Assembly (NCBI GenBank): GCA_043803105.1 | Contig: JAZDKJ010000006.1 | Coordinates: 1-64,000 of the forward strand | Length of the DNA: 64,000 nt | Origin: Candidatus Woesearchaeota archaeon | GTDB taxonomy: Archaea > Nanobdellota > Nanobdellia > Woesearchaeales > JAZDKJ01 | Direction: 5' to 3' | Shown here: positions 10,052-33,644 of the stretch, one piece after another | How the letters are laid out: every line of letters starts with the position of its first letter | How positions within the stretch are numbered: the stretch's first letter is position 1 | Made by a program: the position numbers and the translations under genes | The notes under the pieces: generated by a model | Databases searched by the model: none | Told to the model about the DNA's origin: nothing | Seen by the model: the letters and a program-made list of their open reading frames with translations, nothing else

Positions 10052-11503
10052 TCATCCCTTCATCACTGCTATCGGCACAACCCTTGCTACAAGGTTCCCG
10101 ATTCCAAGCTTGTGTGACACCCTTACAACCTCATCTACATCTTTATAAGCAGCAGAGGCCTCTTCAGCAAGCCCCTGCCATGAAGTTGCCTTTACCTCAA
10201 CTCCATGCTCTGCTAGGTCTTTTGATATCTGCTCTCCCCTGAACCTGCTTAGAGCCTCATGCCTTGACATTACCCTTCCTGCTCCATGTGCAGTGCTTCC
10301 AAAGCTCATCTCTTCTGCCACTTTTGTGCCAACCAAAATGTATGAAGCAGTTCCCATGCTCCCAGGTATAAGCACTGGCTGTCCTACATCGCGGTAGACC
10401 TCAGGTATCTCTTCCCTTCCTGGTCCAAATGACCTGGTTGCTCCCTTGCGGTGCACGCAGAGCTTTCTTTTTTCTCCGTCAACCATATGATCTTCAATCT
10501 TTGCTAGGTTGTGGCACACATCATATATTTGTTCCATCCCTTGCGAGCTGCCAAATACCTTTGCAAAAACATCCCTTACCCAGTGAGCTATCATCTGCCT
10601 GTTTGCAAAAGCGAAGTTTATTGCTCCAGCCATTGCCTGGAAATATTGTTGTCCTAACTCTGAGTTGACAGGAGCATTTACAAGTTCCCTGTCAGGAAGG
10701 TTAGCAAACCCGTATTTTTCTTCCATTTTCTTGATGTAATCTGATGCCACCTGATGCCCCAGGCCCCTAGAGCCGCAATGTATCATGACCAGCACTTGAT
10801 CCTTTTGGTTTATTCCAAATCTTTTGGCAATTCTTTCATCGTAAATTTCATCCACTTTCTGTATCTCAAGGAAGTGGTTTCCAGCCCCTAGTGTTCCTAG
10901 CTGTGGCTTTCCCCGATCAAACGCTTTTGGAGTGATTGCATTAGAGCTTGCTCCCTTCATTCTTCCGTACTCTTCTGTCCTTTCCAGGTCTTGTTTGGTT
11001 CCGTAGCCATTCTCTACTGCCCATGCTGCTCCCTTGCTCACAACTTCTGCGAGCAGTTCCTTGGACAATTTTGTTATTCCTCCCTTTCCTACTCCTGCAG
11101 GCACTTCTTTAAAGGTTTCATCTAAAAGTTCTTTTCTCTTTGGTTCTACCTCTTTGAAAGTCAAATCTGTTCTAAGAAGCCGTACGCCACAATTAATATC
11201 ATAACCCACGCCACCTGGTGAGACTATGCCATCATCCATATCAAATGCCGCCACTCCTCCTATTGGAAAACCGTCTAAGGCCTAATTAACAGCGCTAATT
11301 AGGAATCCTTCATGAGCATCAGGCATGGTATAACCTGCCTTGACAATGCCCTTCAAAGTGGCGACATTGAATGTTTGCTGCAATGTCCTGTCCTGCTTAA
11401 TCTTTTCCATGAGTTTGTCCGAGGCGTATACAAAGCTAGGCACATTCATAGCCCCATGCTTTGGTATCTCCCACACAAACTCGCTGATTTTTTTCAATTC
11501 CAT
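10052..11503 (-). CDS. rtcB: tRNA-splicing ligase RtcB, intron-split: join(11503..11305,11274..10052), 473 aa after splicing
   Basis: Exon 1 ends MPDAHEG and exon 2 gives YGFPIGGVAAFD; also GYDINCG, GTLGAGNHF, HCGSRG, HN, HRKGA, PGSMG, HGAGR. Removing 30 nt restores a continuous frame. Confidence 0.95.
11275..11304 (-). other. 30-nt bulge-helix-bulge intron in rtcB mRNA
   Basis: mRNA UG-AAGG-AU^U-CCUAAUUAGC-GCU-GUUAAUUAGG-CCUU-AG^A-CG: 4-bp helix AAGG/CCUU, two 3-nt bulges, 10-bp inner stem, in-frame UAG. Confidence 0.9.
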
Positions 11504-11525
11504 AATAGAAATCGAAAGAAGCTGT

Positions 11526-11534
11526 GTTTAAAAA
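11526..11534 (-). promoter_or_regulatory. TATA-like box of rtcB (probably near-leaderless transcript)
   Basis: Minus strand reads AAGCTTTTTAAAC ~25-30 nt upstream of ATG 11503. Confidence 0.5.
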
Positions 11535-11654
11535 GCTTACTGACAGAGTTTTGCAGTCCCAACAAAATCTTTCTCAACAGCCTGTTTAAGCTCGTAGAAC
11601 TCAGGTATTTGATGGCCTAAAATTCCAGCTCGTAAATTTTTAAGGGTTATATCA

Positions 11655-12065
11655 TCAAACATCAACCACTACTTGCACAAAGCAATGCCCCTTCTTTTCT
11701 TCGATTTCCATCTCGTTGTATGTAACTGCCTTTACATCCCCATGCGTTGAGTAGTCTTCTGTTGACGCGTCTCCGATTACTGTTGCAACTAAATCGTTGC
11801 CCTTAATCTTCAGGCTTTTTACACTGTGAAGGAAAAATCCCTCTGAATCAAGCAGGAACAAGAGTTCTTCCAGGAAGTTGTACAGCAATGCTTTGGTGTC
11901 AGAACCAGTTGCAGAAATCTCCCTCTCCTCTGTTTGCTTTACCTTTGTGCAGTCTACCATGACTGAGAACATTGCTTCAGCTGCGTTAGAGAACGCCTCT
12001 TCAAGGTTTTTTCCATAAGCCCTGAACTTGGCATCAGCAGTGTGCTCGAAAAACTCGTATCTCAT
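11655..12065 (-). CDS. Archease (RtcB activator)
   Basis: EHTADAK..G..LEEAF, DVKAVTY, C-terminal VVDV; adjacent to rtcB. Confidence 0.95.
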   Translation of the reverse strand: MRYEFFEHTADAKFRAYGKNLEEAFSNAAEAMFSVMVDCTKVKQTEEREISATGSDTKALLYNFLEELLFLLDSEGFFLHSVKSLKIKGNDLVATVIGDASTEDYSTHGDVKAVTYNEMEIEEKKGHCFVQVVVDV

Positions 12066-32707: not shown

Positions 32708-33535
32708 ATGAGACTTAAAAGAAAATGCATCCTCATTATGGCAAAAGACCACACCATTCACGGGGTTTTCATGTCGTTTGACTTGTCTGCAATTGAGTTC
32801 AGTAAAAAAGATATGACTAGACATGTCAACCTGCCAAGGAAGATGACAGCAGACCTTGCGGAATTCATAGGGATTATGATTGGAGATGGTCACCTGGGTC
32901 TTTACATTGGCAAGCAGCGAAGTGGTACTGCGCTGAAGCGGTCATCTGTAATCATTTCGTGTAACTCAGAAGAACGAGGGTATTGTTGCCACATAGCCAA
33001 ACTATTTTACACTCTTTTCAATTTGAAACTATCATTTGAGCCTGATCCAAGGTCCAAAGCTGTTTACCTCAAAGCTCACTCAAAGGCTGTGGTGCAGTTT
33101 CTTAACCTTGTCCTGGGTATCCCTATAAACAGGAAAACCGACACAGCAAACATTCCTCAGATAATAAAAAATGGTCAAGATGAATTCAAATACGCCTTCC
33201 TGAAAGGCCTTGCTGACACTGATTTTTCGGTAACATTTAGAAAAAGGCCGGGCAAAGGACATGTTTACCCACGCATAAAGGCTGCGTTTAAGAGCAGGAG
33301 TTTAATTGATGATCTCGGAGAAATCTTGAAGGGGGTAGGTTTCACTTATTGTAAAGTTTATAACGAAAAAGTATACCGAAAAGGCTCAGAGATTCCAGAC
33401 TTGAGACATGGTTTGTATTTGAATGGTGTCTCCAATTTTAGGGCTTGGTGTGATACAATTGGCTTCTCGAATCCAAAATTCATCAAGAAAGTGGCGAAAT
33501 GGAACAAGGAGGGTGTTTGCCCTCCAGGTTGCTAA
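32708..33535 (+). CDS. Free-standing double-motif LAGLIDADG homing endonuclease-like protein
   Basis: LAEFIGIMIGDG and FLKGLADTDFSV motifs, IGFSNP near the C-terminus; start may be 32738 or 32771. Confidence 0.85.
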   Translation: MRLKRKCILIMAKDHTIHGVFMSFDLSAIEFSKKDMTRHVNLPRKMTADLAEFIGIMIGDGHLGLYIGKQRSGTALKRSSVIISCNSEERGYCCHIAKLFYTLFNLKLSFEPDPRSKAVYLKAHSKAVVQFLNLVLGIPINRKTDTANIPQIIKNGQDEFKYAFLKGLADTDFSVTFRKRPGKGHVYPRIKAAFKSRSLIDDLGEILKGVGFTYCKVYNEKVYRKGSEIPDLRHGLYLNGVSNFRAWCDTIGFSNPKFIKKVAKWNKEGVCPPGC

Positions 33536-33644
33536 GCCTCCGACGAGAATCGCACTCGTGACCTGCTGATAGCTTGCATGTGCTACAAGTTTCGGCCTCA
33601 TTCAAAGAATGAATCAGCCGCAATAGCTACTATGCTACGGAGGC
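33535..33644 (-). tRNA. tRNA-Thr(UGU) with two introns (30/31: 33591-33614; 37/38: 33571-33583)
   Basis: Mature 73 nt GCCTCCG TA GCA TAGTAGCTAT TGC G GCTGA CTTGTAA TCAGC AGGTC ACGAG TGCGATT CTCGT CGGAGGC T; central helices CGGC/GCCG and CTTG/CAAG; TTTATAAA at 33673-33680. Confidence 0.9.

Follow-up and report, generated by a model that had tools for sequence, protein, structure and literature searches.

The window analyzed here comprises 64,000 nucleotides (positions 1 to 64,000 of the forward strand of contig JAZDKJ010000006.1) from assembly GCA_043803105.1 of a Candidatus Woesearchaeota archaeon. On its minus strand the gene rtcB, which encodes the tRNA-splicing ligase RtcB, is interrupted by 30 nt (11275-11304) that have the anatomy of a bulge-helix-bulge (BHB) intron. 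Removal of the insert restores the full-length protein, the gene is present in a single copy, and inserts recur at the same codon in related genomes with covarying helices. We consider it likely, with a probability of roughly 0.85, that these 30 nt are a real mRNA intron, cut by the splicing endonuclease EndA and ligated by RtcB, in which case new ligase would need existing ligase. The initial annotation of this DNA had also proposed a real mRNA intron, a reading that the sequence comparisons given below support.

The interrupted rtcB gene and its bulge-helix-bulge motif

Two minus-strand open reading frames (ORFs), 11282..11503 (73 aa) and 10052..11254 (400 aa), share one frame and are separated by a single TAG. 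The 400-aa ORF, which begins with a GTG start, matches the Pfam family RtcB (1.9e-154, profile 34-426), and its residues 2-400 align with residues 78-481 of P. horikoshii RtcB (E 3.2e-149). The 73-aa ORF taken alone matches no Pfam family, and it supplies the missing RtcB N-terminus, through MPDAHEG. Exon 1 (11305..11503, minus strand, 199 nt), delimited by the ORF list and the translation, runs from Met1 to the first base of a Tyr codon and shows 80% identity to the N-terminus of the same-genus genome G001, and exon 2 (10052..11274, minus strand, 1223 nt including the stop codon) is the part covered by the Pfam match and the P. horikoshii alignment. Between them lies the intron of 30 nt (11275..11304, minus strand), UCCUAAUUAGCGCUGUUAAUUAGGCCUUAG, with an in-frame UAG at 11284-11282. 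Its excision leaves 1422 nt, equal to 473 codons and a stop, and fuses GGA U with AC GGU, giving GAA GGA UAC GGU UUU CCA and restoring MPDAHEGYGFPIGG and HEGYGFPIGG; the split codon is that of the Tyr aligned to residue 70 of P. horikoshii RtcB.

Archaeal BHB motifs are cut after the second base of each bulge. At the break the mRNA reads CAUG-AAGG-AU^U-CCUAAUUAGC-GCU-GUUAAUUAGG-CCUU-AG^A-CG (carets mark the cuts), a 3-4-3 BHB in which both flanking helices are present. In the central helix, the exon strand AAGG (11307..11310, the last two bases of the Glu codon and the GG of the Gly codon) pairs with CCUU inside the intron (11277..11280), a pairing that covaries across genomes and that is found again in metagenome sequences. 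The bulges were read from the sequence and their cuts placed by homology: bulge 1, AU^U (11304..11306), would be cut between 11305 and 11304, and bulge 2, AG^A (11274..11276), between 11275 and 11274. Within the intron, the inner helix h' of 10 bp with one G.U pair (11303-11294 with 11290-11281), present in both the minimum free energy (MFE) and the centroid structures of RNAfold, closes on a GCU loop (11293-11291), and the outer helix h consists of two pairs, 11311-11273 (G-C) and 11312-11272 (U.G), all of these elements lying on the minus strand. The two 3-nt bulges, on opposite strands with a 4-bp helix between them, agree with the motif as defined in the available text of PMC5829648, and the flanking helices h and h' of an hBHBh' structure are both present.

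The initial annotation had described both the division of rtcB into ORFs of 73 and 400 aa, which the ORF list and the translation bear out, and the geometry of the motif (4-bp helix, two 3-nt bulges, 10-bp inner stem, 2-bp outer helix), with which the sequence agrees base for base. Its claims of a 30-nt excision that includes the in-frame UAG, and of a restored motif within a 473-aa ORF, held equally on translation after excision. As for the fold, the AAGG/CCUU helix, the AUU bulge and the 10-bp hairpin all reappear in the RNAfold prediction, whereas the outer pairing of the predicted MFE structure differs from the one proposed. Furthermore, the DNA alignment with G001 has a clean gap of the same 30 nt precisely at the cuts expected from the BHB rule, and that register alone recreates the Tyr codon.

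When the exons were held fixed and the 30 intron bases shuffled, none of 200,000 shuffles combined a fully paired central helix (4/4) with 10 inner pairs, and 179 of 200,000 combined it with at least four. A BHB motif alone is weak evidence, and the register is what counts. A genome-wide filter for BHBs that restore an ORF returned 967 candidates, 49 of which measured at most 70 nt and had at least six inner pairs; among these 49, in a by-eye check that was not rigorous and that relaxed BHBs would escape, only rtcB joins two protein-like frames. No second copy of the intron was detected in its own genome by blastn-short (best other match, 14 nt), and the exact 23-nt hairpin had no match in the metagenome and genome contigs searched. 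Rfam gave no match at gathering score in the window and none at E<=1 in 10900-11700; no curated RNA model, those of group I and group II introns included, thus matches the insert.

Same-site introns in relatives and metagenomes

We sampled 401 genomes from the same order, 387 of which have a PF01139 match; these tallies include 15 genomes flagged as unpublished, on which no claim is based and 12 of which were left out of the follow-up listing. Of the genes listed, which came from 150 rows and 195 further genomes, every rtcB with internal stops, or split near the N-terminus, was fetched, and the cuts were set purely by the deletion that restores [ML][PS]D.H.GYG[FL], the BHB being looked for on those cuts afterwards. 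An intron at the same site, which splits the Tyr codon behind its first base, is present in 14 genomes from 10 families: the genome of the window (G000) and 13 other carriers from 9 further families (G060, G232, G256, G286, G272, G189, G336, G377, G347, G162, G072, G394, and G295). Their introns measure 24-33 nt, eight of the 14 not being multiples of 3, and all 14 hold an in-frame stop (UAA, UAG, or UGA); consequently, no RtcB could come from these genes unless the introns were removed at the RNA level.

The cuts defined by homology fall exactly where the BHB register puts them, which is true of no other register. In the central helix, exon AAGG is matched by intron CCUU, AGGG and GGGG by CCCU, UAGG by CCUG, and UUGG by CCAG. 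Over the 14 genomes, 51/56 cells of the central helix and 69/70 of the first five inner pairs are paired, and pairing of the helix falls to 0.13-0.70 when its 3' strand is shifted by 1-3 nt. The two variable pairs (H1 and H2) are paired in 23 of 28 cells, a value that none of 10,000 partner shuffles reaches, and their types (A-U, G-C, U-A, G.U, and U.G) are set by the codon before Gly. These changes in the helix are tied to different residues before Gly (E, Q, W, I, and F), a relationship that would be difficult to explain if pairing were not under selection.

A blind pattern, made of the codons for MPD[AG]HEG, a T, 26-33 free bases and AYGGNTTYCCNATHGGNGG, with the intron interior unconstrained, was found in 29 metagenome contigs, 24 of them distinct. 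In these 24 cases the central helix stands in the predicted register with 4/4 pairs in 22 and 3/4 in two. Exon AAGG is paired with intron CCUU in 18/18; for exon AGGG (n=6) the partner is CCCU in three, CCUU (with a G.U pair) in one and imperfect in two. Inserts at the same codon with compensatory stem changes, for which the initial annotation had suggested a search, thus occur in 13 other genomes and 24 metagenome sequences.

The 80 RtcB loci of reference genomes that are closest to this gene served as a negative control: 79 have no insert at the site, the exception being the contig of G295, and 73 are bacterial by record title, mostly Aminicenantes. To our knowledge, bacteria have no splicing endonuclease, and among the control genomes that enzyme family was found in the four archaea only. 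Moreover, the motif search matched 17 relatives, of 30 loci scanned, and YGFPIGG is uninterrupted in every one of them.

Proposed splicing of the rtcB mRNA

In the mechanism that we propose, transcription of rtcB, which lies downstream of the archease gene, would probably start from a TATA-like box belonging to rtcB itself. In the pre-mRNA, the exon AAGG would pair with the intron CCUU, with the 10-bp hairpin and the short outer helix flanking the two 3-nt bulges. The single EndA would then cut each bulge after its second base (11305/11304 and 11275/11274), and RtcB with archease would join the exons, the 30-nt intron probably being circularized. The predicted spliced junction is CAUGAAGGAU joined to ACGGUUUUCC, and the mature mRNA would be translated into a 473-aa RtcB with an intact PDAHEGYGFPIGG motif; the unspliced message would terminate at the UAG after 80 codons. 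Since RtcB would be ligating its own mRNA, the synthesis of new ligase would depend on ligase already there.

The genome behind the window has 1,564,226 bp in 13 contigs, with 96.47% completeness and 1.51% contamination, and it contains one EndA gene (203 aa, contig C4, outside the window; PF01974, 9.6e-28). Among proteins of solved structure, this EndA is closest to the N. equitans alpha subunit (8.1e-40), followed by the M. jannaschii homotetramer (1.5e-35). According to the available text of Kaneta 2018 (PMC5829648), alpha4 EndA with an extra loop occur in DPANN, and in the literature available to us the alpha4 type is characterized as strict. A canonical 3-4-3 motif with both flanking helices would suit an alpha4-like enzyme.

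The genome has nine tRNA genes by ARAGORN, five of them with introns, six by Rfam at threshold, and six T-arm-like motifs overall. With so few tRNA genes in a 96%-complete genome, most must be too interrupted for detection, and the genome relies heavily on the tRNA-splicing pathway. In the window, ARAGORN with its intron option called a tRNA-Ala(CGC) with a 37-nt intron at 33535-33644 (minus strand), whose acceptor stem is good and whose T-loop is odd; without that option, or by Rfam at gathering score, no tRNA was called anywhere in the window.

Weighing of the intron reading and its alternatives

Several observations weigh against an intron spliced by EndA and RtcB. The exact sequence of the intron is known from one assembly only; G001, the sister of G000, does not have it, so that it could be recent. 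The outer helix has just 2 bp (G-C and U.G), and the RNAfold MFE favors a different outer pairing; the 71-nt stretch folds with an unremarkable energy (z -0.37; 65/200 shuffles fold equally well). Loose BHBs (4+4+2 = 10 pairs) are frequent genome-wide, with 40,853 in the real sequence against 36,801 and 37,088 in shuffled ones. In three of the 14 same-site introns the central helix is weak (3/4 in G072, 2/4 in G394 and G295). Related genomes are not independent, and kinship inflates the partner-shuffle statistics; likewise, the metagenome cases L089 and L090 are identical to the G060 and G232 introns and are therefore not independent of them. Finally, the EndA resembles a plain alpha4 type and does not have the six loop residues of the N. 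equitans alpha subunit.

Some of these observations would suit a fresh pseudogene, in which a recent small palindromic insertion into the DNA killed rtcB and its hairpin gives rise to a BHB-like fold only incidentally. The absence of the insert from G001 and of its exact sequence everywhere else agree with this, and the comparison of rtcB with G001 (nonsynonymous differences, pN, 0.11-0.14; synonymous differences, pS, 0.79-0.84, saturated) is unable to date the insertion. Yet this rtcB is neither redundant nor in decay: an intact second rtcB and a decay of this copy, both raised by the initial annotation, were looked for, and the 96.47%-complete genome gave a single RtcB match, with no other lesion across the 473 codons and with pN well below pS against G001. 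Many tRNAs in this genome bear introns, and no Rnl3-type ligase (PF09414) was found in it. Moreover, the helix and both 3-nt bulges occupy precisely the register needed to restore the protein (shuffling P about 1e-3 or less), introns with compensatory changes occupy the same codon in the 13 other genomes and 24 metagenome sequences, and hairpins near tRNA-Tyr, when compared with the rtcB insert, have no sequence likeness to it. We therefore regard a pseudogene as very improbable.

EndA could also cut the BHB with a ligase other than RtcB joining the exons, in which case the self-dependence would disappear. A cell once without RtcB could otherwise never recover, and the search covered two ligase families only (PF01139 and PF09414). 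But RtcB is the ligase known to act on the 2',3'-cyclic-phosphate and 5'-OH ends left by EndA, PF09414 is without a match in this genome, and archease lies beside rtcB, so that we give another ligase little chance.

Still harder to credit is that the insert stays in the RNA, with two polypeptides (73 and 400 aa) being made, or the stop being read through or bypassed by the ribosome. The two ORFs, the second with its GTG start, would allow the former, and a hairpin with a nearby stop is loosely like a bypass site. Two polypeptides, however, would lose YGFPIGG, contiguous in the 17 matching relatives and at 79/80 closest loci, and read-through would bring 10 foreign residues into this motif. Furthermore, read-through is impossible for eight of the 14 same-site introns because their length is not a multiple of 3, and the stops in these introns vary (UAA, UAG, and UGA). 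In translational bypass of the phage T4 gene 60 type, matching take-off and landing codons flank a hairpin with a stop; here bypass was rejected, the flanking codons (GGA ... GGU) not matching and the Tyr codon UAC not being regenerable. An intein was rejected as well, the insert having 30 nt and an in-frame UAG.

That the 30 nt are an assembly or sequencing artifact absent from the DNA of the organism is scarcely conceivable, in spite of a metagenome-type assembly in 13 contigs, because the insert is located 11 kb into a contig of 542,637 bp and has a precise functional architecture, homologous inserts occur across many independent assemblies, and the genuine artifact in G009 (an N-gap duplication) looks quite different.

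Other intron positions, inteins and endonucleases in rtcB

Verified rtcB introns, one or more per genome, number among their carriers at least 23 of the 387 genomes, and at least five intron positions lie within a stretch of about 35 codons in the gene. The second position is the His/Trp codon boundary PDGH^WGYGF (the caret marks the insertion point), with introns of 31-33 nt in eight genomes (G111, G070, G171, G300, G379, G371, G250, and G197), where the helix of the BHB is made of 3 bp and a G.A, with one compensatory C-G/U-A change. Canonical BHBs are further found at GIG-Y-DVNC in G286 (L052) and G388 (L044) (UAGG/CCUA, 30 nt), at GFD^INC in G189 (L055) and G250 (L056) (UUCG/CGAA, 31 nt), and at PGG-I-GFD in G111 (L034) (12 nt). 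The 5' exon ends in AU at four of the five positions, the 12-nt one being the exception, and at three of those four the 3' exon starts with A.

In collaborative homing, the gene that bears the intron has the endonuclease gene within it or next to it. Seven of the eight H^W-site carriers have, directly upstream of rtcB, a LAGLIDADG endonuclease gene (PF14528, 1.4e-21 for L045); it encodes about 300 aa and overlaps the rtcB start (L034, 1822..2730, minus strand; L035, 139..1137, plus strand; L045, 2017..2895, plus strand). This link of the H^W position to a free-standing upstream gene suggests co-spread at the DNA level. No LAGLIDADG motif was found upstream of rtcB in any of the 14 same-site carriers, the window included, so that the window intron belongs to a class without a neighboring endonuclease; an intron associated with a homing endonuclease was accordingly rejected for this site, no such gene adjoining it. 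In G379, a second 5' part of rtcB, ending in PDGHWG (L045, 121..354, plus strand), lies 2.5 kb upstream of the real gene, from which it is separated by three ORFs, one of them the LAGLIDADG gene; the duplication looks like the footprint of an insertion with target duplication.

A quick RtcB tree of 53 sequences (381 C-terminal columns), whose rows were chosen partly by trait and which is descriptive only, requires at least nine changes of state for 12 carriers of the window intron position; G038, G018, G072, G256, and G157 were left out of it by failure of the motif expression. G286, a carrier, and G388, a non-carrier at the window site, have near-identical RtcB proteins. A tentative reading, to which we would not commit ourselves, is that the rtcB mini-introns may be a mobile BHB family repeatedly gained and lost at AU^A-type junctions in active-site codons. 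If so, carriers would be caught in an autocatalytic loop (no RtcB, no new RtcB), the host gene being that of the sealing ligase; this loop would make ligase expression a heritable on-state and could couple the supply of ligase to the load of tRNA exons.

Inteins also occur in the gene: rtcB of G001 (L031, G001:C198, minus strand) has an intein-sized insertion right after DINC in an 818-aa open frame, and an intein-like split of rtcB (profile 1-50 and 49-426 in one 900-1000-aa frame) is found in about 40 other genomes of the order. The split rtcB of G009 was rejected as an intron, being an N-gap with a duplicated segment, and G288 and G049 owe their longer rtcB matches to ordinary insertions in loops. 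The gene of G141 has an N run and several stops, that of G157 is split at profile 287/301, and that of G228 lies at a contig end. In G138 (L038), rtcB has one in-frame TAA (LKQVL*TGAKW) with no added length; it may reflect a sequencing error, codon recoding or a nonsense mutation, and is not an intron.

Neighboring genes and possible origin of the RtcB clade

The next gene upstream encodes archease, the cofactor of RtcB (11655..12065, minus strand; Pfam Archease, 9.9e-42). A TATA-like box read from the sequence, TTTTTAAA (11527..11534, minus strand), lies 24-31 nt 5' of the rtcB ATG; it is a putative promoter of rtcB itself, which would give a leaderless mRNA. Between archease and rtcB, a 42-aa ORF (11537-11665, minus strand) runs over both the TATA-like box and the stop of archease; it matches no Pfam family and is probably not a gene.

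The closest RtcB relatives in reference genomes are bacterial by record title (L091-L161 and others), mostly Candidatus Aminicenantes/Saccharicenans. Over 400 aa, identity is 65-76% to the bacterial proteins, versus 61-64% to those labeled Woesearchaeota and 78-80% to the same-genus G001, a pattern suggestive of inter-domain transfer of this RtcB clade. The bacterial copies are all free of the intron.

Significance and comparison with known systems

A search of the literature found no description of a BHB intron in rtcB, in agreement with the initial annotation, which knew of none; supplements that may list mRNA BHBs lay outside that search. The intron sits in the mRNA of the sealing ligase, which would make a core RNA-processing enzyme dependent on itself for its expression. 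The recurrence in many small, uncultivated archaea offers a natural data set on the movement of BHB introns, the co-evolution of intron and codons, and the action of an alpha4-like EndA on mRNA. It also bears on gene annotation, in which the rtcB of these genomes comes out as two ORFs or a pseudogene. The present work adds the covariation and blind-pattern tests, the bacterial negative control, and the distinction of endonuclease-linked from endonuclease-free positions.

The inteins of rtcB are likewise selfish-looking insertions in the conserved N-terminal active-site region, that of G001 lying 27 codons downstream of the intron site. Unlike the intron, they are removed from the protein, measure about 500 aa and keep the frame. 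XBP1 and HAC1, which are cut by IRE1 and ligated by RtcB or Trl1, also carry a short mRNA intron that is removed without the spliceosome, and the animal ligase is RtcB; in the accounts available, however, IRE1 reads paired stem-loops and not a BHB, the target is a transcription factor, and splicing is regulated by stress.

With the multiple and non-canonical tRNA introns of Thermoproteales and DPANN, as presented in the available text of Kaneta 2018 (PMC5829648), the rtcB intron shares the motif, the enzymes and the size range. It differs in that its host is an mRNA, and with a central helix built from codons the intron must track the protein sequence. The BHB intron in the 5' untranslated region (UTR) of HVO_1309 of Haloferax volcanii (Schwarz 2020, PMC7714728) is, as the rtcB intron would be, an mRNA substrate of EndA outside tRNA and rRNA; as far as the available text tells, that intron lies in an untranslated leader with no frame to restore, whereas the rtcB intron lies within codons.

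A close counterpart is cbf5, which encodes a pseudouridine synthase and whose pre-mRNA carries a BHB intron in Crenarchaeota (Watanabe 2002 and Yoshinari 2006, via the available text of PMC7714728; Yokobori 2009, available text of PMC2738675). According to the available part of Schwarz 2020 (PMC7714728), it was the sole BHB mRNA intron reported before the 5'-UTR case. Like the cbf5 intron, that of rtcB is a short BHB set in the codons of an RNA-processing enzyme; it would likewise be removed by tRNA splicing enzymes, and it too is gained and lost among relatives. In the work on cbf5, mRNA splicing is linked to a hetero-oligomeric EndA, whereas the EndA of the present genome looks alpha4-like. 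The rtcB intron differs further in residing in the pathway's own ligase, in a DPANN-type order (closest archaeal titles: Woesearchaeota), and in that several intron positions cluster in one active-site region of the gene. The product of rtcB, and not that of cbf5, would be needed to mature its own mRNA.

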